From positions 96,655-160,654 of the forward strand of contig CAXXVO010000021.1 of the NCBI GenBank assembly GCA_963422645.2: a DNA stretch of 64,000 nt. The letters are read 5' to 3'. Both the position numbers and the translations under genes were made by a program. Under the pieces are notes generated by a model. That model saw only the letters and a list, made by a program, of their open reading frames with translations, was not told the origin of the DNA and did no database searches. This document shows, piece by piece, positions 1,942-13,528 of the stretch. The stretch is from Alphaproteobacteria bacterium. GTDB taxonomy: Bacteria; Pseudomonadota; Alphaproteobacteria; UBA828. Each line of letters begins with the position of its first letter. The stretch's first letter is position 1.

Positions 1942-3442
1942 GACCGGCCTCCCTCAGGCTGTCGTAGCGCTGACAGTCGGCTACCGGCTTGTGGCGAAGC
2001 TGCAGGCCCTCGGGCGTCGGGATGATTGCCGGCGGTGCCGGCTGGCGCTGCCGGGCGAGGATGTTGAGCACCACGTCGGCGCTGCAGGCACCGCAGTCGA
2101 GCGTCTCGGCACAGGCCGCCTCAACCGCCTCCAGTCCGTCCTCCAGCACCGCCGCGAGCACCTTGACGAACTGCCGGTCGCCGTCGTCGTGGCCCGCGAG
2201 CCGGGTTCGCAGGCGGCCGAGCGCGTTGGGCAACTGCCAGTCCTTGAAGGGCGCGCCATTGCGTAGCGCGCCGGGCTTCCGCGTCAGGATCGGCACGTAA
2301 TGCCACGGATCGTAGACGAACCGGCCGCGCCCGAAGCTGCGGGGGTGCTCGGCAACGGTCTCGCCGTCCTGGCGGATGACGATCCGATCGGCATAGGCCC
2401 GCACGTCCACCGGCCGGCCGACGGCGCGGGCCGCGACGCTGTACTGGTTGTTGTCGAAGCGCACCAGACAGGTCTTCGAGACCGACACCTCGCTGGCATG
2501 GAAGCCGTCGAAGGGGCCGCGATACGCCATCAGGAAGGGCTGCTCCTCCTCGAACACCTGCCACACCGTCTTGCCCGGGATTGTCGGATGCGGATGCTTC
2601 TTGGCGTCCTCGATGCACCGATCCATCAGCCACTCGTTGATCTCGGCGTAGGAGCGGCCCCGCGGGATGGGCACGAACAGGCGGCCGCGAAGGTCACCCA
2701 CCTGCTTCTCGACCTGCCCCTTCTCCCAGCCAGCCCCTGGCGTGCACGCCACAGGCTCCACCAGATGGTGCGAGCACAGCTCCTGGAAGCGGCGGTTGTA
2801 GTCCCGCTTCTTGCCCACGAAGATCGTGCTCACCGCCGTCTTCATGTTGTCGTAGATGCCCCGCCGGCAGACCCCGCCGAAGAAGCGGAAGGCACGCTCG
2901 TGCGCCTCGAAGACCATCTCCTGGCTCTCGCGGGGAAAGATCTGGACCAGATACATCCGGCTGTGGCACAGCCGCATGTGCGCCGCCTTCACCCTGGTCG
3001 TCGCGCCCGACAGACGCGCGTACTCGTGGCTCCAGTCGAACTGGTAGGCCTCGCCGGGATCGAAGATCAGCGGCACATAGGCCTGCGCCGGCGACAACAG
3101 CCGCCACCGGCGCCGCCAGGCCCTGGCATAGCGGCGAACCGCGTCATAGCCGCCCTTGTAGCCCAGCGACACAAGGTCTTCATGAATCCGCAGAAGAGAC
3201 AGCCGATCCTTGCGTGCCTTCTTCTCGTTGGCCTTCAGCTGGCGCTCAAGCTCCTCCACCCACAGCCCAAGCTTCGGCATCGGCTGGATCTTGCGCTCGT
3301 AGCTGTGCGAGGTCGCATCGCCCCGCACCACCTTGCGTATCGTGTTCTTGGAAACCCTCAAATCCCGGGCGAGCTTCTTGATCGGAACGCCCTTCACCAG
3401 ATGATCCCGACGGATCTTCGCGATCGTTTCCACAACCAGCAT
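1928..3442 (-). CDS. istA: IS21 transposase IstA
   Basis: N-terminal [22 protein letters not shown] motifs; overlaps istB start; ATG at 3442 chosen as start. Confidence 0.95.
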
Positions 3443-3561
3443 CTCCCCCACCACCCCGTCCGTCCAAACGACGAGGTGTGTTCATGGACACAAATCCAAG
3501 GGGGTCAATTTTGGACGCCGATCACCCCCAATAGGGGGTCACTTTTCCACGCTTAACAACA

Positions 3562-3764
3562 GTCTGGTGCGAACCGAGGTCGTCTGGTTCAACTACGCCC
3601 CCGACCGGATGCATTGGGCCAGCCACGCAGGCCGGAACTTCACCGACCGCCAGCGCATCAAGCGCAAGGCAGCCAACTGGGGCCGGCGCTACCAGGCCTT
3701 GCCGCCGGGCGAACGCCTCGCCGTGCTCGCCGCCATGATGGCCGTCGAGGCCGAAGACACGTGA
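3562..3764 (+). pseudogene. C-terminal fragment of a probable DNA adenine methyltransferase (phage/ICE type), cut by IS21
   Basis: RTEVVWFNY...AGRNFTDRQRIKRKAANW...PPGERLAVLAA recalled as the tail of small D12-class adenine methylases; begins right at the IS21 end. Confidence 0.55.
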
Positions 3765-5301
3765 CGGTGTCGCACTGGCACGAAGACCTCGCCGCCCGTA
3801 ACGAGGCCTTCTGCTGCCTGAAGGAGCTTCTCGAGCCATCATCCCTCGCAACCACTGTCGTCGTTGCCGTCCGGGAATGGGGGCAGGGGCTGCTGCGATC
3901 AGCCACCGCGCTCGCCCGGGAAAATGCCGCACTCGAGCAGGAGAACGCGGCCCTGCGCGAGCGCATCGCCGAACTCGAGCGCAGCGCGGCCCTCAACAGC
4001 ACCACAAGCAGCAAGCCCCCCGCCAGCGACGGGCTCAAGAAGAAAAGCGGAGCCCAGAGGCGCACCCAAAGCCAGCGCGGAAAGTCCGGCGGGCCCAGTG
4101 GCGGCCAGCCCGGCCACAAGGGAACCACCCTCGCGCGGAGCGACAGCCCGGACCGTGTCGTCGATCACCACCCCTCCACCTGTTCCGGCTGTGGCGTCGA
4201 GCTCTCGGACGCCGACCGGCAAGGCGCGCCCGCCTGTCGGCAGGTCTTCGACGTACCCGAGCCGCAGCCTCTCGAGGTCACCGAACACCGCGCCCATCGC
4301 TGCCTCTGCGGCGCATGCGGCACGCTGACACGAGCCGCCTTCCCGCCGGGCGTCACCGCCCCGGTCCAGTACGGCCCTCGCATCACCGCTTGGGTGAGTT
4401 ACCTGCTGTACGCCCAGTTCGTGCCCGAGAAGCGTCTGGCCGAACTCATGAGCGACATCTTCGCGGTGTCCATCTCCACTGCCACGATCGCCGCCATGGG
4501 CCGGCGCACAGCGCAGCGCTTCGAGGGCTTCCTCGACCATGTCGCCGATCTGATCCGCACGCAGGCGCCGGTCAAGCACCTCGACGAGACCGGCCTGCGT
4601 ATCGCCGCCCGTACCCGCTGGCTCCATGTGCTGTGCACCCCGTTGCTCACCGTCCTGCGCATCGGCGAGGGACGCGGCGATGTCGAAAAGAACCTGAAAG
4701 GCATCCTCGTCCACGACGACTTCGCCCCCTACTTCACCATCAAGGGCTCATCCGCCACGGCGCCTGCAACGCACATCACCTGCGCGAACTCCAGGCCCTG
4801 ATCGACATCGAGAAGGAGGAATGGGCGGCGAGCATGCACCGCCTGCTTCAGCGCGCGCGCAGGGCCGCCCGCTTCGCCCGTGAGAAAGACCGTCAAGTCC
4901 CCGCCTCCCTGGTGGCCCGCATCTCAAGGGCATGGGACCGTATCCTCGAAGAAGCCATCGCCTTCCATGAGGCCCAACCGCCGCTCCAGATCGCAAAGCG
5001 AGGGCGAAAGAAACGCCGCATCGGCCACAACCTCGCGCGCCGCCTTCAAAAGCATAAGGAGGGCTGCCTGCGCTTCCTCACCGACCTGCGCACGCCGTTC
5101 ACGAATAACGAGGCGGAGCGTGACATCCGTATGAACAAAGTGCATGAGAAGATCTCAGGCGGCTTCCGCTCCCTGCAAGGCGCCTGCAACTTCGCCGGAA
5201 TGCGCAGCGTCATCGTCACCGCTCGAAAGCAAGGCTGGAACATCCTGCAAATCCTGGCGCACCCGGAACCGATGCAGCTGATCCCTATACTGCGCTCCTG
5301 A
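3761..5301 (+). pseudogene. IS66 transposase, frameshifted near 4745 and fused in frame to a foreign N-terminus
   Basis: NSTTSSKPPASDG, GGQPGHKG, CxxC zinc finger, HLDETG, CNAHHLREL, TNNEAERDIR, KISGGFRS motifs split across two frames at AAGGGCTC. Confidence 0.85.
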
Positions 5302-5466
5302 ACTTCTCCGGCTCATCCTGAGTATCGCTGTCCTCTCATCTTGTTCGCGACGCGGCGTTCATCATCCTCTCGCGCTCAAGAGAGTAGGCACCCCCGCGGC
5401 GTGGGGGCGTTGACGCAAAAGGAACTGGCTTGTTCCATAAGAGAGAGGGGGTACCTGGGCAGTTAC
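3761..5466 (+). mobile_element. IS66-family (ISBst12 group, single ORF) element lacking its left end
   Basis: Right IR ACCTGGGCAGTTAC at 5453-5466, same as the IS66 at 17181-19068; no GTAACTGCCCAGG left IR found. Confidence 0.8.
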
Positions 5467-6344
5467 CCTTCGAAGAGTATATGGCGGCCAATCCCAACCG
5501 CACGAAGCGCACCAACGAGCTCTACCGCTACGAGGCGAAGCGGTATCTGAGCGACTGGCTCACCCGCCCGCTCGACGCTATCGCGCGCAAGGATGTCGAG
5601 GCCCGCTTCAACAGCATCACGGCCGACCACGGCTGGTCGGCGGCCAACCGGGCGATGTCGCTTCTGCGCTCGGTCTACCGCAGGCCCTGCGTCGACCTGG
5701 ACGGGCTACGCAATCCGGTCGATCTCTGGCTCGCCGGCGGCGGCAAGTTCCACCGCAAGACAAGGCGCAAGATCTCGGCCCCGGCAGAGGTGCTGCCGTG
5801 CTGGCGCGCCGGGATCGAGGCTGAGGTGCACAACCCGGCGATCCGGGATACCCTCTGGTTCGGGCTCTACACCGGCATGCGCCGCGAGGAGGTGCTCACA
5901 CTCCGCTGGGAGCGGGTCGACCTGGCAGCGCTCACCTTCCGGGTCGAGGAAACCAAGACCGGCGTGCCCCTGGAGCTTCCGATCACCCGGCAACTCGCGG
6001 CCATTCTCGAACGCCGCCTGGCCGCCGTCGGCGACTACTCGCCCGGCGTTGGCGACTGGGTGTTTCCCTCGCCTACCAGTGCCACCGGCCATGTGCAGGA
6101 TATCCATCATCTCTACAGCCGCATCGGCAAGGCCGGCGGCGCCAAGTTCTGGTTTCACGGCCTGCGGAACTGCTTCATCACCGTCGCCGAGCGCGAGCTG
6201 ATGCTGCCCTCCTCCCTCACCAAGCGCCTCGTCAACCACGCCCGCCCCAACGACGTCACCGAAGGCTACGCAGCCGACTGGACCGTCTCCCAACTCCGAG
6301 AACCGGCGCAGAATGTCGCCGACCGGATCGAGGCGCTCTTGGCC
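5467..6344 (+). pseudogene. Tyrosine recombinase / phage-type integrase, N-terminus removed by IS66 and C-terminus replaced by IS21 sequence
   Basis: Catalytic R (YTGMRREE), K (ETKTG), HxxR (HGLR), H (LVNH), Y (EGY); frame reads through into istA sequence to 6479. Confidence 0.85.
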
Positions 6345-7449
6345 CCTGTGCCGAGACGCTCGACTGCGGTGCCTGCAGCGCCGACGTGGTGCTCAACATC
6401 CTCGCCCGGCAGCGCCAGCCGGCACCGCCGGCAATCATCCCGACGCCCGAGGGCCTGCAGCTTCGCCACAAGCCGGTAGCCGACTGTCAGCGCTACGACA
6501 GCCTGAGGGAGGCCGGTCATGGAGCGTCATGATGTGCTGGAGATGATGACCCAGCTGAAGCTCGCAGGTATGCGCGCCGCTTACGACGACATCCTTGCCG
6601 ACGGGCTCAAGCGCCGCCATCCGGTGCAACAGATCATCGGTACGCTGCTGCAGGTCGAGATCGCCGACAAGAGGGCCCGCTCGATCAAGTACCAGATGGC
6701 CTCCGCCAAGCTGCCGACGGTCAAGGAGCTGGCCGACTTCGACTTCGCCGCCTCGCCGGTCAACGAGCCCCTGATCCAGGAGCTCGCCGGCGGCGGCTTC
6801 CTCGAGGGCAAACGCAACATCGTGCTGGTCGGCGGCACCGGTACCGGCAAGACCCATCTCGCCGTCGCCATCGCGCGGTCCTGCATCCGCAAGGGCGCGC
6901 GCGGCCGGTGCTACAACGTCGTCGACCTGGTCAACCTCCTCGAGGCCGAGCTTCGCGCCGGACGCCAGGGCCGCACTGCAGACCAGCTCGTCCGCCGCGA
7001 CTTCGTCATCCTCGACGAGCTCGGCTACCTGCCCTTCGCCCAGGCCGGTGGGCAGCTGCTCTTCCATCTGATGAGCCGGCTCTACGAGCGCACCTCGATC
7101 GTCATCACCACAAACCTCGCCTTCGGCGAATGGCCATCCGTCTTCGGCGACCCCAAGATGACCACAGCGCTGCTCGATCGCCTCACCCATCATTGCGAGA
7201 TCATCGAGACCGGCAACGAGAGCTGGCGCTTCAAGAACCGCTCCTGACCCGCCGCCGGCCTCCCTTGCGGCCCGGTTGCCCCGGTGGGCCAACAGGGACC
7301 CCCCACGCGGCTTCGCTCCGCGTAGCGCAGGGCGCCACACGAAGCCGCGCGGGTCCCCCCTATTGGCTACCGGGACAACCTCCGCCGTGCCACTCAGGGG
7401 GGTCAATTTTGCACGCCGATCGGGGGTCAGTATTGAAAGCCGATTGACA
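6345..7449 (+). mobile_element. Partial inverted copy of the IS21 (3' end of istA, istB, right IR)
   Basis: 1105 bp matching the reverse complement of 1011-2115; ends CCGATTGACA. Confidence 0.93.
6519..7247 (+). CDS. istB: IS21 helper ATPase IstB, second copy
   Basis: Protein identical to 1213-1941. Confidence 0.95.
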
Positions 7450-7551
7450 CTGCTCGCCGCCGGCGCCGAGAAGAACCGCGAGGTTCTCGACGAGAAGCTC
7501 TTCATGGAGATCCTGGGCGAGCCCGCCAAGCCGAAGAGGGCACGGCGGTGA
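7450..7551 (+). pseudogene. C-terminal fragment of a probable ExeA-like transposition AAA ATPase, cut by IS21
   Basis: LLAAGAEKNREVLDEKLFMEILGEPAKPKRARR* resembles the recalled tail (LLAAA...LDEKL.LEVF) of ExeA-family ATPases paired with DDE transposases; stop overlaps the next start (GTGA). Confidence 0.5.
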
Positions 7552-8546
7552 AGGGCTTCCCGACACGGGCGCCGATGCAGCTCGAGGATCGCCCCCGGGC
7601 GCAACAGTGGATGGTGGACACGCTGTGGGCCGAGCAGGCCGTGGGCATCGTCGGCGGCGAGCCCAAGTGCGGCAAATCCCTGCTCGCGCTCGATCTCGCC
7701 GTCGCCGTGGCCACCGGCGTCCCATGCCTGCGCCACTACCGCCCCAGCGCAAGCGGCACCGTGCTGCTCTTCGCCGCCGAGGACGCCGGCCACAGGGTGC
7801 GCAAGCGTCTGCAGGGGATCGCCCGCGCCGCCGCCACCCCCTTCGACGAACTCGACATCGCCGTCATCGACGTGCCCACCCTGCGTCTCGACCGGCCCGG
7901 CGACCGTCAACGCCTGCAGCAGACCGTGGAGCGCATCGAACCGCGCCTCCTGATCCTCGATCCCCTGGTCCGCCTGCACAGCGTCGACGAGAACGCCGTC
8001 GCAGAGATCGCCCCCATCCTCGGCTTCCTGCGCGAACTGCAGCGCCGCTTCGAAACCGCCGTCCTCCTCGTCCACCACGCCCGCAAGAGCGGCGGCACCC
8101 GGCCGGGGCAGGCCCTGCGCGGGAGCAGCGAGCTGCACGCTTGGGGTGACTCAAATCTGTACCTGCGCCGGCGCGACAAGAAGATCGTCATGACGGTCGA
8201 GCAGCGCGACGCCCGGGGCCTCAACGACATCGAGCTGGAACTCGTCGACGGCGGACATGGGCCGGCCTTCCGTCTGCACCAGGACGCGGCAGATGAAGAC
8301 AGGCACGAGCCCGCCACCGTCGAGCAGCGCGTCTTCAAGGCGATCGAGCAGGCCGAAAAGCCGCTCTCGAAAGCCCAGATCCGCTCACGCGCCGCTGCCC
8401 GCAACGCCACCGTCGTTGCCGCCATCGAGAGCCTCACCAGGGAGGGGCGCATCGAACGGGCGCCCAGGGGTGGCTATCGCCTCGCAGCCGCCGAGGCGCA
8501 CCGGGAGCCGCAATCCCCTGCCGCCATCAACGGAAGTGCGGGATGA
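7548..8546 (+). CDS. RepA/AAA_25-type (SF4-like) helicase ATPase with probable C-terminal winged helix
   Basis: Walker A GEPKCGKS, FAAED, Walker B LLILDPL, LVHHARK and RGSS motifs. Confidence 0.85.
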   Translation: MKGFPTRAPMQLEDRPRAQQWMVDTLWAEQAVGIVGGEPKCGKSLLALDLAVAVATGVPCLRHYRPSASGTVLLFAAEDAGHRVRKRLQGIARAAATPFDELDIAVIDVPTLRLDRPGDRQRLQQTVERIEPRLLILDPLVRLHSVDENAVAEIAPILGFLRELQRRFETAVLLVHHARKSGGTRPGQALRGSSELHAWGDSNLYLRRRDKKIVMTVEQRDARGLNDIELELVDGGHGPAFRLHQDAADEDRHEPATVEQRVFKAIEQAEKPLSKAQIRSRAAARNATVVAAIESLTREGRIERAPRGGYRLAAAEAHREPQSPAAINGSAG

Positions 8547-8607
8547 GGCGTTCCCGTTCCCGTTCCCGGAACTCTTAAGCGTTGAAGGGTACAGGAACGG
8601 GAACGCC
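8547..8607. repeat. Origin-like GTTCCC repeats forming an inverted repeat
   Basis: GTTCCC x3 at 8550-8567; 14-bp perfect IR GGCGTTCCCGTTCC (8547-8560) / GGAACGGGAACGCC (8594-8607) around a more AT-rich spacer. Confidence 0.75.
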
Positions 8608-8648
8608 GTCAGCCTCCCTTCCAAGCAGACCTTCGCCGGGACCCGGCA

Positions 8649-9518
8649 ATGAGCGGCGGCGATCCCCTGGCCACCTGCCGCAACATCCCCCTCGACCGGG
8701 TCGCCGCCGCCCTCGGCTACCGCAGAGACCCGACCGACCGGGCGCGCTTCAAGCGCGGGGGCTCGGTCATCAGCATCAACGGCGAGAAGTTCTTCGATCA
8801 CCTGCGCGGCACGGGAGGGGGTGGCGCCATCGACCTCGTCATCCATGCGACGGGATGCCGCTTCCCGGAAGCCCTCCGCTTCCTCGGAAGCCATGAGGGG
8901 CGGAGGGAGATCACCACCATCCCAGCCGCCCCGCGACGCCTGCGGCTGCCAAGGCCCAGTCCCCGCGCCTGGCCCAGGGTCCGGGACGCCCTCATCCGCC
9001 AACGCGCTATCGGCACCGACGTGCTCGAAGCCTGCCACGGCCGAGGCCTCCTCTACGCCGATGACAGGATCAACGCCGTCTTCATCTGCCGAAACGCCAG
9101 CGGGCACACGACCGGCGCCGAGATCCTCGGCACCGCGCCGCAGCCCGGAACAAAACGCTTCAGGGGCATGGCCCCGGGATCGCGCAAGGCGCGTGGCGGC
9201 TTCTGGCTCCACTGCGACCGAAACCAGCCCGCCCTCGTCATCCTCACCGAGAGCGCCGTCGACGCCATCTCTGCACGAAGCCTGCGCGTCGAGGGGACGC
9301 GCGAGAACGGCGCCGTCGTCGCCTCAACCGCCGGCATCGCCAGCTCGGTCCCGCCCTGGATCAAGGAGTGGAAGCCACGTCGCATCGTCTGTGCCTACGA
9401 CGCAGACAGCGCCGGCGACACTGCCGCCGAGCATCTCGTGCTCAACGATCCAAGGGTGAAAAGGTTGCGCCCACGACACGCCAAGGACTGGAACGAGATG
9501 CTCCTGCGGTCTCGATGA
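8649..9518 (+). CDS. Toprim-domain primase-like protein (DUF3991 + Toprim type)
   Basis: Toprim Glu (ILTESAVDAIS) and DxD (AYDADSAGD), terminal KDWNE; N-terminal FFDH..GGGAIDLV region like primase N-domains. Confidence 0.8.
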   Translation: MSGGDPLATCRNIPLDRVAAALGYRRDPTDRARFKRGGSVISINGEKFFDHLRGTGGGGAIDLVIHATGCRFPEALRFLGSHEGRREITTIPAAPRRLRLPRPSPRAWPRVRDALIRQRAIGTDVLEACHGRGLLYADDRINAVFICRNASGHTTGAEILGTAPQPGTKRFRGMAPGSRKARGGFWLHCDRNQPALVILTESAVDAISARSLRVEGTRENGAVVASTAGIASSVPPWIKEWKPRRIVCAYDADSAGDTAAEHLVLNDPRVKRLRPRHAKDWNEMLLRSR

Positions 9519-9545
9519 AAGCCAGGCCACTCACCGCTCTCGCAG

Positions 9546-9617
9546 ATCAACCAAGCGCCGCATCACGAACATCAAATAATCCGAAAACCGCACCATCAAA
9601 TGCTGGGCGCACGCTCA
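9546..9617. repeat. Putative transposon right end with spaced repeats ending in CA
   Basis: ATCAA(A/C) at 9546, 9571 and 9595 (25/24-bp spacing) ending ...CGCACGCTCA; reads TGAGCG... on the minus strand. Confidence 0.45.
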
Positions 9618-9812
9618 GCCGGACCGGAAAGCGTCGCCGACGCTGCGTGACCCAACCCCGTTCACTCCGCCTCACTCCACAAGTTCCCAACGAGCACAAA
9701 CCGCTGGCGCCGTTCTTACACTCGCGGCTCTCTCCCCCTTCGGCTCGTAGTAGAGCGAGGAGCGCCCGATCGACAGCGCGCGGCATTACCCATCCACCTG
9801 CTTGCCATAGCA

Positions 9813-9918
9813 CGACATGTCGATCTATTGTCATTTCTTCGACACGTTTGGATGACATGTCGACGGAAACGACATGTTCGGACAATGTGTCGACAGGAGC
9901 TGGATACATCGACATGAC
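9813..9918. promoter_or_regulatory. Cluster of CGACATGTCG-like palindromes upstream of fic (putative operator array)
   Basis: CGACATGTCG 9813, CGACACGTT 9840, TGACATGTCGAC 9853, CGACATGTTCG 9870, TGTGTCGACA 9886, CGACATGAC 9910 (covers the start codon). Confidence 0.55.
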
Positions 9919-10999
9919 CTTCGATCCCGGTCATCCCTTCAATGACCTCCCGAACCTGCCACCGGCTTCGGAAACCGAGACAAAGGCCATTCTTCGGAGT
10001 TGCATTGCCGCGCGCGCGGCACTGGCGGAACTCCGCGTCTCCGGGAAGCTCATCCCGAACCAGGCGATGCTGATCAACTCGATCCCCCTTCTCGAAGCGC
10101 AGGCGAGTTCCGAGATCGAGAACATCGTGACGACGGCCGACCGGCTGTTCCGCTACGCCAACGACGCGACGGGTCGAGCCGACCCTGCCACCAGGGAAGC
10201 TCTGCGCTACCGCACCGCGTTGCACCGCGGTTTCGAGATGCTGAGCCAACGGCCGGTTTCGACCGTCATGGCGGTCGAGGTCTGTCGAACGATCAAGGGT
10301 GCGGATCTGGATATTCGCAACACGCCGGGAACGGCATTGGTGAACGATGCAACCGACGAGGTCATCTACACGCCGCCGGAGGGAGAGGACGTTCTCCGGG
10401 GCAAGCTCGCCAACTGGGAGCGCTACATTCACGAGGCCGAGGAGATCGACCCGCTGATCCGCCTTGCGGTCATGCATTATCAGTTCGAGGCGATCCACCC
10501 GTTCGTCGACGGAAACGGCCGGACCGGACGCGTGCTGAACCTGCTCTATCTCGTTGACAAGGGCCTGCTCGATGTTCCCGTCCTTTATCTCAGCCGGCAC
10601 ATCATCCGGAACAAGGCGCTCTACTACCGGTATCTGCTCGAGGTGACGACCCGACAGGACTGGGAAGCATGGATACTCTTCATCCTGGAGGCTGTCAGAA
10701 CGACGGCGGAATGGACGACGGCGAAAATCCGCGTGATCCGGGAGCTTCTCGACGAGACGGGCGTCGCAATTCGACAGAGGATGCCGAAAATCTACTCCCG
10801 GGAACTGGCGGAACTGATCTTCGTGCATCCCTACTGCCGGATCGGCGACGTGGTGGCAGCGGACATCGCCAAGCGTCAGACGGCTGCTGTCTATCTGAAA
10901 GCCCTCGCAGCCGAAGGTCTCCTCGAGGAAATCAAGGCTGGGCGCGAGAACCTCTACATCAACCCCCCGCTCCTGGCCCTTCTGTCCGATCACGCTTGA
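9914..10999 (+). CDS. fic: Fic family protein adenylyltransferase (SoFic-like, class II) with C-terminal wHTH
   Basis: HPFVDGNGRTGR Fic motif; inhibitory SSEIEN motif N-terminal to it; ATG at 9914 (MTFDPGHPFNDLP). Confidence 0.93.
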   Translation: MTFDPGHPFNDLPNLPPASETETKAILRSCIAARAALAELRVSGKLIPNQAMLINSIPLLEAQASSEIENIVTTADRLFRYANDATGRADPATREALRYRTALHRGFEMLSQRPVSTVMAVEVCRTIKGADLDIRNTPGTALVNDATDEVIYTPPEGEDVLRGKLANWERYIHEAEEIDPLIRLAVMHYQFEAIHPFVDGNGRTGRVLNLLYLVDKGLLDVPVLYLSRHIIRNKALYYRYLLEVTTRQDWEAWILFILEAVRTTAEWTTAKIRVIRELLDETGVAIRQRMPKIYSRELAELIFVHPYCRIGDVVAADIAKRQTAAVYLKALAAEGLLEEIKAGRENLYINPPLLALLSDHA

Positions 11000-11094
11000 C
11001 TACCCGACACGGCTTAGGGCCGGCATCGGTCATCGTCAACCGGCGCAGTGCATGCCCAACATGACTGGAAGCTTCCGAATCGCGGCGCTAGTTT

Positions 11095-11169
11095 CAGACT
11101 TCCTGACCTCTGCTGATTTTAGGTGACACGAGCCGCGCGGATTCCGAGGCCCCGTCGATGTCGTAGACT
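11095..11169 (-). repeat. Orphan 75-bp right end of the unclassified IS, abutting a full copy
   Basis: Identical to 11170-11244 (CAGACTTCCTGACCTCTGC...TCGTAGACT). Confidence 0.9.
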
Positions 11170-13528
11170 CAGACTTCCTGACCTCTGCTGATTTTAGGTG
11201 ACACGAGCCGCGCGGATTCCGAGGCCCCGTCGATGTCGTAGACTATGCGCAGACGGGTGCCGGGGAAGACCGTTTCGGTGGCGTTCAGGTCGCTCAGAAC
11301 CGCATCGATCCAACGGTCGCAGGCGTCGTTTGCGAGGCCAAGAATGTGGACCCGCAGGAGGCCATTGCCAGGATCCGGCAGGATGTCGGCATCGGCGGTG
11401 AGCAGCGCTTGAAGCAGTTTCCGGGGATGGGGCTTGTGGCCCTGCGCCTGCATGACGGGAAGCATCATGCGGGTTTCGGCGCGGTAGGCGATCATCCGGA
11501 TGACGTCGAGGAGGAGGCGCTCGCGCGCGGGCAAGGCATCGAGCTGCTCGGCTTCGTCGAGGTCGCCGGCCCGGCAGTGCTTGGGCGTCTCCCTGCGGCT
11601 GGCCCTGACGATGTCGCGGACATCCTGGAGGTCCCTGACTTCCCTCCTGAGTTCCGCCGTCGGCTGCTTCTTCCGGGCCGTGTCGGCGATGCGGTTGCGC
11701 AGGCGGCCAAGCTGGCGGTCGAGGCGATGGATTGCCTTGTCATAGGCCCGCCGCAGCGGGTTGACGACCATGGCGGCGGGATCGAGAGGCTCGAGCTCGT
11801 GGGTCGGCAGGGCGTCGAGATTGAACTCGTCACGCATGTACTTGAAGAAGTTCTCCTGCGACCAGCGCGAGAACATGGCGCCCGCAACCTCAGCCATCGG
11901 CTTGTGCGGATCGGTGGTGATCAGCGGCACCTGACGGCCGTTGTCGAGCAGGCGGCGGATCTGGCGCACCCTGAAGCCGTTCGGCAACGTCACCGGCTTC
12001 TCAGCCAGCCGCATGGTGGCGCTGCCGTCCGCCGCCGGTCCGTGAATGGGAACGGTCATCGCGCCGAAGTCCTCGGCCGGCCAGTCCTCGCCCCTGAAGT
12101 TCTTGTGCCAGGTCAGGCAGGCGACGCCGCGCCTCGCCAGCCGGCGGAACAGATCCGGGCTCCAGCCCTCGCGGTCGAAGACCAGGGTGAGCGCCGGCTG
12201 GCCGGGATGCTCGGCGGTCAGGTCCGGCGCCCCGGCGCCAACGATCCCAAGCTCCTGCAGCGCCGGCACCACGTCGGCTTCGATGGCCGCGACCATCTTC
12301 GGGTCCAGCGGCTTGTGCAGACAGAGCAGCGGCTTGCCGCCCAGAGCGTTGATCCAGTAGCTGGCGCTCGCCGGCAGGCACAGCTTCTCGCGCGAGACGA
12401 AGTGCTTGGGCAAGCGCCCCTTGCGGCCGGAGTAGACCTTGACGTGCCCGTCGATGGCCAGCGTCGCCCAGAGCTCCGGCTCGTCGGCGCCTGCCAGCGC
12501 CTGGCAAGGGCGAGCTGCCACGCCCGCACGCCGGCCTCGTCGTCGGCGATGAGAGCGATCTTGCGGCGCAGCGTCTTGACCTCGGGGCAGCGATCGAGGC
12601 CGAGAATGGCGCCCCATTCGCCCGGCGCCTGGTAGCGCAGGCTCTCGGGGTTGCGCACCCGCGCCAAGGTCATGAAGGCCAGGAAGAGCAGGATCGTAGG
12701 CAAGCCGTAATAGCCCTTCGGCAGCAATGGCAGGAGACCGGTCTCGGAGAGAAGACCTTCCTTCAGCAGGGCCGGCAGGGCGGCGAGCACGCCGCCGAAG
12801 CGGACACCGCGGGCGGCGGCGGCGAACTGCGGTTCGACCGGCCCCGCCTGTCCACAACTGGCCAGAACCCGAGCCGGAACATCGCAAGTCGCACGCCCCA
12901 TCGGCGCCTGCCGGTCCCGCCGATCGCGCGCGCTGCGATCCGTTTGCGGCTGCGCTTCCAGCCCCGGCGCCGTCTCCGGCCCCGGGGCACCGGTACTCTC
13001 TTCATCGACACGGCCTTCAGGAGCCGCACCCGCGTCAGGCGGCGCAGCCAGCGCTGAGCGTCCGGGCTCCCCATCCGCCTCCGTGTTGCCGATCAGTCCC
13101 TGACGGCGCCACTTGTTGACCGATGGCGCTGACACGCCGAGAACCCGGGCCGCCGCAGAGCCGCTCAGGCCCGATGCCAGCAACGCCGTCGCCTTCTCCG
13201 CCAACTCCGGAGTGAACACCGACGGCCCGCGACCGCGCCGGGGCTTCATGAACCCCGCTTCGCCCTCGGCCAGGTAGCGCCGTCGTGCGCGCTGCACCGT
13301 CGCGCGCGAGACAGCGAAAGCGTCAGCCAGTTCCTGCGGCGAGACCGCGCTGATCGCCGCGAGGCGGCCGATCCGCAAGAGCATGGCCGTGCGGTCATCG
13401 GCGGCGTGGCTGTCAAAGGGAATGAGGTTGGAAAAGTAGGTGAAGGTGTCGTCCGAGATCAGGACGGCGAAGCAGCTGTTGCCGATCGAGACCGCCTCTG
13501 GAGGGCACATTGGGAGGGTACTGGGCAT
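11169..13528 (-). pseudogene. Large (about 785 aa) DDE transposase with two N-terminal HTH-like motifs, frameshifted near 12488
   Basis: Candidate catalytic motifs IDGH, FDREG, RWSQENFFKY; ORFs 12218-13528 and 11169-12887 join if 2 nt are removed. Confidence 0.8.

Follow-up and report, generated by a model that had tools for sequence, protein, structure and literature searches.

What kind of mobile element carries a helicase-type gene and a primase gene next to its end, and what would it use them for? The question is raised by positions 7450–9617 of a 64,000-nucleotide stretch of alphaproteobacterial DNA (contig CAXXVO010000021.1 of assembly GCA_963422645.2; the whole stretch is referred to here as the window). 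A first-pass annotation, made from the letters alone, had taken this segment for the right half of a Mu/IS21-style transposon built around a DDE transposase and an ExeA-like ATPase, with a helicase, an origin and a primase of its own. All the features it listed (the GTGA overlap of two genes, the GTTCCC repeats, the Toprim gene, the spacing of the ATCAA repeats and the terminal CA) lie where it had placed them. We find that 7450–9617 is a dead fragment of a Tn6049-type transposon that was recently active and exists in multiple copies. Its AAA_25 protein, its Toprim protein and the repeat palindrome between their genes may together form an element-encoded primosome for the DNA synthesis of transposition, a reading of the sequence to which we assign a probability of roughly 0.55.

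Copies in the genome and evidence of transposition

Using blastn with positions 7450–9700 as query against the window's own genome, we found the whole 2168 bp at 15 further places, with 99.7–100% identity. These 15 matches stop at query position 2168–2176, i.e., at or a few bases past window position 9617. Extension of an intact copy gave a unit of 5189 bp, of which the last 2168 bp (element positions 3022–5189) are present in the window. Eight uninterrupted copies, 99.6–100% identical to each other, begin TGAGCGCGCGC... and end ...GCGCACGCTCA, with different flanking DNA for each; the flanks were checked and represent different sites, not one duplicated segment. The genome contains 24 left and 27 right ends of the element, 13 of which pair up, leaving 11 solo left ends and 14 solo right ends. 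All 27 right ends stop at the base equivalent to 9617, and the boundary that had been proposed at the CA there is thus borne out both by the match ends and by the right ends. At the protein level, the AAA_25 protein has 30 matches in its own genome, 19 of them full length at 98–100% identity.

The right end is an imperfect inverted repeat of the left end, with TG...CA termini. Three subterminal repeats are found in the right end and one similar site in the left end, and variants from other genomes have kept both the right-end sequence and the subterminal motifs. The TG...CA ends had been expected to come with target duplications, and direct repeats of 4–5 bp were indeed found around 5 of the 13 paired copies (5 bp in three and 4 bp in two, with none in the other eight) and around three variants in other genomes (CCGGT, GCGA, and CTGC). 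One copy, flanked by CCTTG on either side, interrupts an IS21; the uninterrupted IS21 of the window represents the empty site, where CCTTG occurs once. The copies without direct repeats and the solo ends fit later rearrangement, for which recombination and intramolecular replicative events are indistinguishable. Reciprocal flank matches between the repeat-less copies, the signature of inversion, were looked for by eye, and the 4-mers seen were not above a rough chance estimate.

Two copies have inserted into elements of their own kind, both inside the AAA_25 gene (G000:C6:430794-436755 and C3:162385-166181, G000 being the window's genome). As one of these self-insertions is inverted and the other direct, the element has no obvious self-immunity. 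A DNA search of 7450–9700 against plasmids (blastn, distant mode) gave a single weak match of 146 bp, and a search of the full element against Rfam gave only chance-level microRNA matches far below the gathering scores.

The element is a variant of Tn6049

The five genes of the intact copy L009 (Table 1) are co-directional and overlap at three of the four gene junctions. The gene order DDE transposase, ExeA-like ATPase, helicase, Toprim is seen in the full copies, in two other genomes of the genus and in four metagenome loci, which agrees with the earlier description of the segment as the right part of such a transposon. The family had to be reassigned. For the transposase, the best NCBIfam model is IS481 (9e-34, below the cut-off of the model), the IS21 model reaching just 2.3e-9, and no match to the Mu transposase C-terminal domain was obtained at E up to 0.1. 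The ATPase likewise has no match to IstB_IS21 and matches AAA_22 instead. By sequence comparison the element is of the Tn6049 type, with an IS481-like rve transposase and an AAA_22 ATPase, and neither Mu nor IS21.

Tn6049 is also found on the Pseudomonas aeruginosa plasmid pHS87a. In Cupriavidus metallidurans CH34 it is 3.5 kb long, occurs in 12 copies and encodes a gspA-like ATPase (PMC2864759, excerpt), and it has 12-bp imperfect inverted repeats and 4-bp direct repeats (PMC4739549, excerpt). Aligned with the Tn6049 transposase found on pHS87a, pMOL28 and pMOL30, the transposase of our element shows 47.8% identity across 95% of its length. The product of orf1 is 41% identical (2e-33) to the 181 amino acid (aa) "transposase" that precedes the Tn6049 transposase on pHS87a, and the ATPase shares 50% identity with the Tn6049 ATPase along its entire length, the gene following directly after that of the transposase in both. 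The first three genes are thus homologous and in the same order in the element and in Tn6049.

The fourth gene is where the two part ways. In Tn6049 it encodes a 90-aa hypothetical protein unrelated to the AAA_25 protein (best E 0.61), whereas our element, at 5.2 kb, has the AAA_25 ATPase, the palindrome and the primase in place of this small gene. The terminal inverted repeats are short, imperfect and TG-starting in both, but the end sequences differ, and the direct repeats are 4–5 bp in the element and 4 bp in Tn6049. Because of the unrelated fourth gene and the size of 5189 bp, we regard the element as a variant and not as Tn6049 itself. Tn6049 is named in the literature, but a helicase or primase in Tn6049-like or IS21-like transposons was not described in the part covered by our search, outside of which lay most subscription journals and all supplements.

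Helicase-type protein, palindrome and primase

Among solved structures, the AAA_25 protein is best matched by the RepA helicase of RSF1010 (1g8y, 1.9e-8), aligned over residues 32–196. It is also matched by PHROG helicase families and by the helicase parts of primase-helicase families. Walker A (G36-S44) and Walker B (D138) are invariant among 24 sequences. Together these features make it a putative hexameric helicase. The C-terminal ≈75 residues gave sub-threshold winged-helix matches only, with a weak helix-turn-helix (HTH) match at residues 257–313, and HTH domains of the GntR, MarR and IclR kinds are precomputed on close AAA_25 homologs. The monomer model is poor, with a predicted local distance difference test (pLDDT) score of 52.7, and unfit for a fold search. 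Prediction of a complex between the AAA_25 and Toprim proteins gave a score of 0.00 in two runs, which were made without controls.

For the Toprim protein the AlphaFold model is better (pLDDT 87.4). Its top Foldseek matches are 2au3, 1nui, 1eqn, 3b39 and Twinkle (E 8e-8 to 1e-5, probability 1.00), so that the fold relatives comprise the DnaG primases of Aquifex and Escherichia coli, the T7 gp4 primase and Twinkle. Across 29 Toprim sequences D251 is invariant and E201 and D253 are nearly so, corresponding to the catalytic Glu and the DxD motif. The fold of the N-terminal domain weakly resembles that of 1d0q, a zinc-binding domain of primase (E 0.018), and D50, H51 and H66 are invariant in this part. 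A sequence search of the PDB with the Toprim protein gave 0 matches. Domain content and modeled fold both point to a DnaG-like primase, for which primer synthesis is predicted.

Between the two genes, GTTCCC occurs three times at 8550–8567, followed by a spacer of ∼25 nt and by inverted GGAAC copies at 8593–8604. The palindrome folds as single-stranded DNA with −24.1 kcal/mol (z = −4.8), and none of 200 shuffled sequences folds as well. The layout is kept in all 11 loci that have this helicase, with direct hexamers, a spacer containing or lying beside the helicase stop codon, and inverted copies. Four classes of hexamer could be distinguished (GGGAAC, GGTAAC, GGAAAC, and GGAACC), and the two arms match each other in each of the 11 loci. 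The presumed recognition helix of the helicase (R-x-x-T) differs among the four repeat classes. The palindrome accompanies the helicase and not the primase, since it is present in the primase-less elements L045–L047; a similar repeat set was not evident in the IS21-like primase element of genome G005 described below. It is a candidate binding or loading site (iterons), or a candidate single-strand hairpin. In several loci (L048, L050–L052, L027, and L045–L047) the 3′ coding end of the helicase gene includes the left arm of the palindrome, and the repeats there encode the C-terminal tail of the protein (...LPKTVTA... or ...RFPVP...).

Distribution and constraint

The five-gene element is present in two other genomes of the genus, with 12 copies in G008 and one in G014, and the identities to it are mosaic. 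The ATPase is 66% identical in G008 and 91% in G014, whereas the helicase is 91% and 74% identical, respectively. Synonymous divergence (dS) also varies several-fold between the genes of a single pair (L023 of G008, L027 of G014, and the L048–L051 variants). From the mosaic identities and the uneven dS, we conclude that the variants recombine.

A different primase-carrying element was found in G005, in 11 identical copies of 4242 bp. It consists of an open reading frame, a Mu/IS21-like transposase (Mu-transpos_C_2, 5.4e-20), IstB and a DUF3991-Toprim protein that is 47% identical to the Toprim protein of the window. The window's genome has a single IS21-like primase transposon (G000:C22, ∼64000–67800, some 29 kb before the window), with an open reading frame, a Mu/IS21-like transposase (79%), IstB (86%) and a Toprim protein 48% identical to the window's. 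Both types of primase-carrying transposon are therefore present side by side in one genome. In addition, 66 distant genome matches (<60% identity, at least 80% coverage) to a Mu/IS21-like transposase were seen.

Among metagenomes we collected 80 loci with a Toprim homolog, of which 38 have at least 2.5 kb upstream and were scored for context. In 19 of the 38, genes for a DDE transposase and an AAA+ ATPase precede the Toprim gene, which ends the row. IS21-like genes with Toprim account for 13 loci, the five-gene arrangement of Tn6049-like genes, AAA_25 and Toprim for four, and Tn6049-related genes with Toprim and no helicase for two. In the other 19 loci no transposon gene was matched by the queries used; here the Toprim sequences are 31–35% identical and mostly part of frames of 590–2441 aa. 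In a quick tree the primases of the five-gene elements form one clade (support 99), the IS21-like contexts are split between two distinct clades, with the fused forms outside transposons as a third group; the contexts of three rows were checked.

The AAA_25 gene is found after quite different transposases. In L045 and L046 it is 65–71% identical while the transposases preceding it are only ∼28% identical, which indicates that the module moves between cores. The ratio of nonsynonymous to synonymous substitution rates is 0.29–0.49 for the helicase, 0.30–0.41 for the primase and 0.25–0.34 for the transposase; by this sequence measure, the constraint on the helicase and the primase is similar to that on the transposase. 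Large protein searches, in which 8000 candidates were scored for each query, gave at least 1316 Toprim and at least 7800 AAA_25 matches at E ≤ 1e-5, nearly all of them unnamed and many on contigs of ∼5.2 kb. Among 401 genomes sampled class-wide, one moderately close AAA_25 relative (46%) was found outside the genus, and an AAA_25-alignment scan of the genome collection, which used two very specific peptide patterns, returned five loci.

A possible primosome for transposition

How might such a module serve a transposon? With its winged-helix tail the AAA_25 protein would attach to the repeats, or it would be loaded at their hairpin, and it would then act as fork helicase, while the Toprim protein would make the primers. 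In this way the module could start DNA synthesis, either for replication through the strand-transfer (Shapiro) intermediate or for a copy-out step, and the element would be independent of the host restart primosome. As the element contains no resolvase and no gene for second-strand cutting, a replicated strand-transfer or copy-out intermediate is plausible. The same grade may be given to the mechanism of the helicase-primase module as a whole, as read from its genes and repeats.

Several observations weigh against this proposal. Classical Tn6049 and IS21 elements do without a helicase, and classical Tn6049 also does without a primase; these families can thus dispense with the module. The winged-helix tail is putative, being deduced from sub-threshold matches and a poor model (pLDDT 53), and the N-terminal domain of the Toprim protein has no conserved Cys zinc ligands among the 29 sequences. 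The repeat classes coincide with clades, and the co-variation of helix and repeat is therefore only suggestive, as relatedness could explain it. Direct repeats are missing from 8 of the 13 paired copies, which replicative rearrangement and plain recombination between 5-kb repeats fit equally well. Finally, the same insertion of ∼1.77 kb is found at element position ∼4727, inside the Toprim gene, in three loci (Table 1). It seems that an element with a broken primase has multiplied, at least where other copies provided the protein, and the shared insertion implies that the primase is not needed in cis when other copies are present.

The module might instead turn the excised element into a small replicon, a possibility that the first-pass annotation had named beside that of priming. 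The circle would multiply like a plasmid, with the AAA_25 protein binding and unwinding a repeat origin and the primase priming, and would then re-insert. The layout of helicase, repeats and primase does recall P4 alpha and the RepA/RepB′ pair of IncQ plasmids, which have iterons and hairpin start sites. The repeats co-vary with the helicase and are found right next to its gene, and circles or abutted-end junctions are probably formed as intermediates by IS481/IS3 relatives and by IS21. Yet no junction of a right end to a left end is present in the assembly, where none of the 27 right ends is followed by a left end, and no go-back joint was seen in the contigs of three runs (Logan) that contain the element, although a rare circle is easily missed by contigs. 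The one run with raw reads, a Hi-C library, had 0 reads on the element and so has no bearing on circles or on copy excess. The five open reading frames of the 5189-bp unit include neither a DNA polymerase nor a separate, RepC-like initiator, despite the presence of repeats. Many relatives, moreover, have only the primase or only the helicase, which would be insufficient for a replicon, and we consider this explanation quite unlikely. Passenger genes taken from a mobilizable plasmid or an integrative element, where they could for example prime the complementary strand after conjugative transfer, or genes with no role at all, would suit the finding that the nearest plasmid relatives of the Toprim protein (30–38%) are MobV relaxase domains or stand-alone plasmid DUF3991-Toprim proteins. 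The 19 of 38 metagenome loci without transposon genes, with Toprim mostly in long fused frames, and the dispensability of the module in classical Tn6049 point the same way. A mere passenger is nevertheless unlikely, given that the Toprim gene always comes last and co-directionally after an AAA+ ATPase in both IS21-like and Tn6049-related transposons, that its Tn6049-related hosts comprise two widely diverged cores, and that the start of the helicase gene overlaps the stop codon of the ATPase gene. The constraint on the module also equals that on the transposase, and intact copies have expanded (19 full-length helicase genes in this genome, 12 copies in G008, and 11 copies of the IS21-like element in G005).

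Pairs of an ATPase and a Toprim protein are common in defense systems, and cargo for defense or counter-defense, with a Toprim nuclease of the OLD, Gabija or PARIS kind, therefore had to be considered as well. In PADLOC the Toprim protein matches the DnaG-like domain of a defense reverse transcriptase model at 3e-9, but there is no other credible PADLOC match for either protein. The fold matches are primases, the Toprim nucleases 8b7f and JetD ranking only 44–45 with E ∼0.015, and the ATPase is of the RecA/RepA type and not of the ABC type found in OLD. A defense function is accordingly very improbable.

The proposed primosome can be placed in a wider frame. At least two families of bacterial DDE transposons, the Tn6049-related and the IS21-like, may have taken up primosome parts repeatedly in order to start their own transposition synthesis, with a DnaG-like primase in both and a RepA-type helicase with a co-evolving loading site in the Tn6049-related elements only. 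Self-priming transposons of this kind would be the DDE counterpart to self-synthesizing elements, and they would be common in environmental bacteria. We put this forward tentatively, at somewhat less than even odds. If the element does encode a primosome, this would explain how about twenty near-identical copies could arise within a single genome, and it would offer a compact system of five genes and 5.2 kb for studying fork assembly at a transposon end. As regards annotation, thousands of unnamed metagenome genes listed as "AAA family ATPase" or "toprim domain" are probably transposon genes.

The window fragment and its surroundings

The fragment in the window makes up 42% of the element (Table 1). 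It does include the right end of the transposon, as the first-pass annotation had it, but is less than the half that was claimed. The loss of the left part at the IS21 junction could be confirmed: the left 3021 bp are absent at 7449/7450. What remains of the ATPase gene is 100% identical to the matching part of the full copies. The helicase gene starts with GTG at 7548 and overlaps the TGA stop of the ATPase gene (7549–7551), giving GTGA. In the right end, ATCAA is found at 9546, 9571 and 9595 (spacings of 25 and 24 bp), and the terminal CA occupies 9616–9617. Having lost its left end and all three transposition genes to the IS21 fragment, the copy in the window cannot move by itself. No left fragment ending at element position 3021 was found elsewhere in the genome, so the missing part was deleted and not moved.

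The IS21 boundary at 7449 was set by an inverted repeat of 1105 nt with 100% identity (1011–2115/6345–7449). The position of the partial IS21 must reflect a deletion, a rearrangement mediated by IS21 or, possibly, a join made during assembly. The partial copy begins inside istA, right after a tyrosine recombinase gene (5430–6345, Phage_integrase 2.7e-13) whose frame continues into the IS21 fragment up to 6479. A genomic-island remnant tied to this integrase could be ruled out as the identity of the segment, because the 27 right ends recur in different flanks. A complete IS21 is located on the minus strand from 1011 to about 3561, with an istA of 508 aa and an istB of 242 aa. An IS66-family transposase covers two overlapping frames (3614–4801 and 3877–5301, DDE_Tnp_IS66 1e-16) and is probably frameshifted. 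Directly past the right end of the transposon, a Fic/DOC family protein with Fic_N, Fic and a SoFic-like C-terminal domain is encoded at 9914–10999, followed by a tandem pair of 75-bp units at 11089–11238 that are 97% identical. A transfer RNA scan found no tRNA genes in the whole window.

Table 1. Positions of the features discussed in the text, in the window, in the intact copy L009 and in loci of the same genome (G000).
Feature	Position	Strand	Remarks
Partial IS21 (3′ part of istA, plus istB), outside the element	Window 6345..7449	+	IstB_IS21 3.2e-75
ExeA/GspA-like AAA+ ATPase, 3′ remnant	Window 7450..7551	+	Last 33 codons and stop; element positions 3022-3123
RepA-type (AAA_25) ATPase, putative hexameric helicase, intact, 332 aa	Window 7548..8546	+	Pfam AAA_25 2.5e-36
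Repeat palindrome at the helicase stop codon	Window 8532..8622	.	Arms 8532-8567 / 8587-8622, imperfect
DnaG-like primase (predicted), intact, 289 aa	Window 8649..9518	+	Pfam DUF3991 1.7e-10, Toprim_2 3.3e-9
Transposon right end	Window 9519..9617	+	Three subterminal ATCAA repeats; end reads ...GCGCACGCTCA
orf1, Cys-rich, 205 aa	L009 151-768		Weak HTH
DDE transposase, 523 aa	L009 722-2293		rve, rve_3, HTH_32
ExeA/GspA-like AAA+ ATPase, 277 aa	L009 2290-3123		AAA_22 6.2e-19
AAA_25 protein	L009 3120-4118		
Toprim primase (predicted)	L009 4221-5090		
Loci with the ∼1.77 kb insertion in the Toprim gene	G000:C11:80741-87697, C18:61466-68434, C13:129934-132386		Two full-length, one right-end fragment

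Comparison with known systems

The replication of transposition intermediates is known in detail only for phage Mu, which has a DDE transposase with an AAA+ helper, TG...CA ends and a 5-bp duplication. For Mu to transpose, a fork has to be assembled at the end of the transposon. Replicative transposition of Mu depends on host restart and primosome proteins including PriA (PMC5778457, excerpt). Mu thus borrows the restart primosome of its host, whereas our element, which is no phage, encodes a putative helicase and a predicted primase itself.

The module has another counterpart in the IncQ plasmid RSF1010, as the AAA_25 protein is a sequence relative of RepA and as both systems place a helicase-primase pair beside short repeats and a hairpin. 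RSF1010 uses the RepA helicase, the RepB′ primase and the RepC initiator, whereas the element has no RepC-like initiator and carries its module inside a DDE transposon. The primases are also unlike each other, RepB′ having a fold different from that of DnaG/Toprim, the type to which the primase of the element belongs. In the satellite phage P4, the alpha protein combines a Toprim primase, a helicase and a C-terminal DNA-binding domain that recognizes short origin repeats. Here the functions are fused and the helicase is of the SF3 type, whereas the element has two proteins and an ATPase of the RecA type; the carrier differs as well, with a DDE transposon in our case and an integrase in P4.

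A link between priming and insertion sequences is known from IEE, a protein encoded outside the insertion sequences it acts on. It is a PrimPol-helicase that enhances the excision of IS3-type insertion sequences, whose movement involves a circular intermediate (bioRxiv 10.1101/2023.06.07.543989, excerpt). Being PrimPol-based according to this excerpt, it is unrelated in fold to the Toprim primase of the element. Finally, casposons and other self-synthesizing transposons bring their own replication proteins (PMC4046053 and PMC4779613, excerpts). These have a DNA polymerase and, as integrase, Cas1, whereas our element has a DDE transposase and no polymerase. If the proposed primosome is real, the Tn6049-type element would add a bacterial DDE transposon to the few mobile elements that supply replication machinery of their own.

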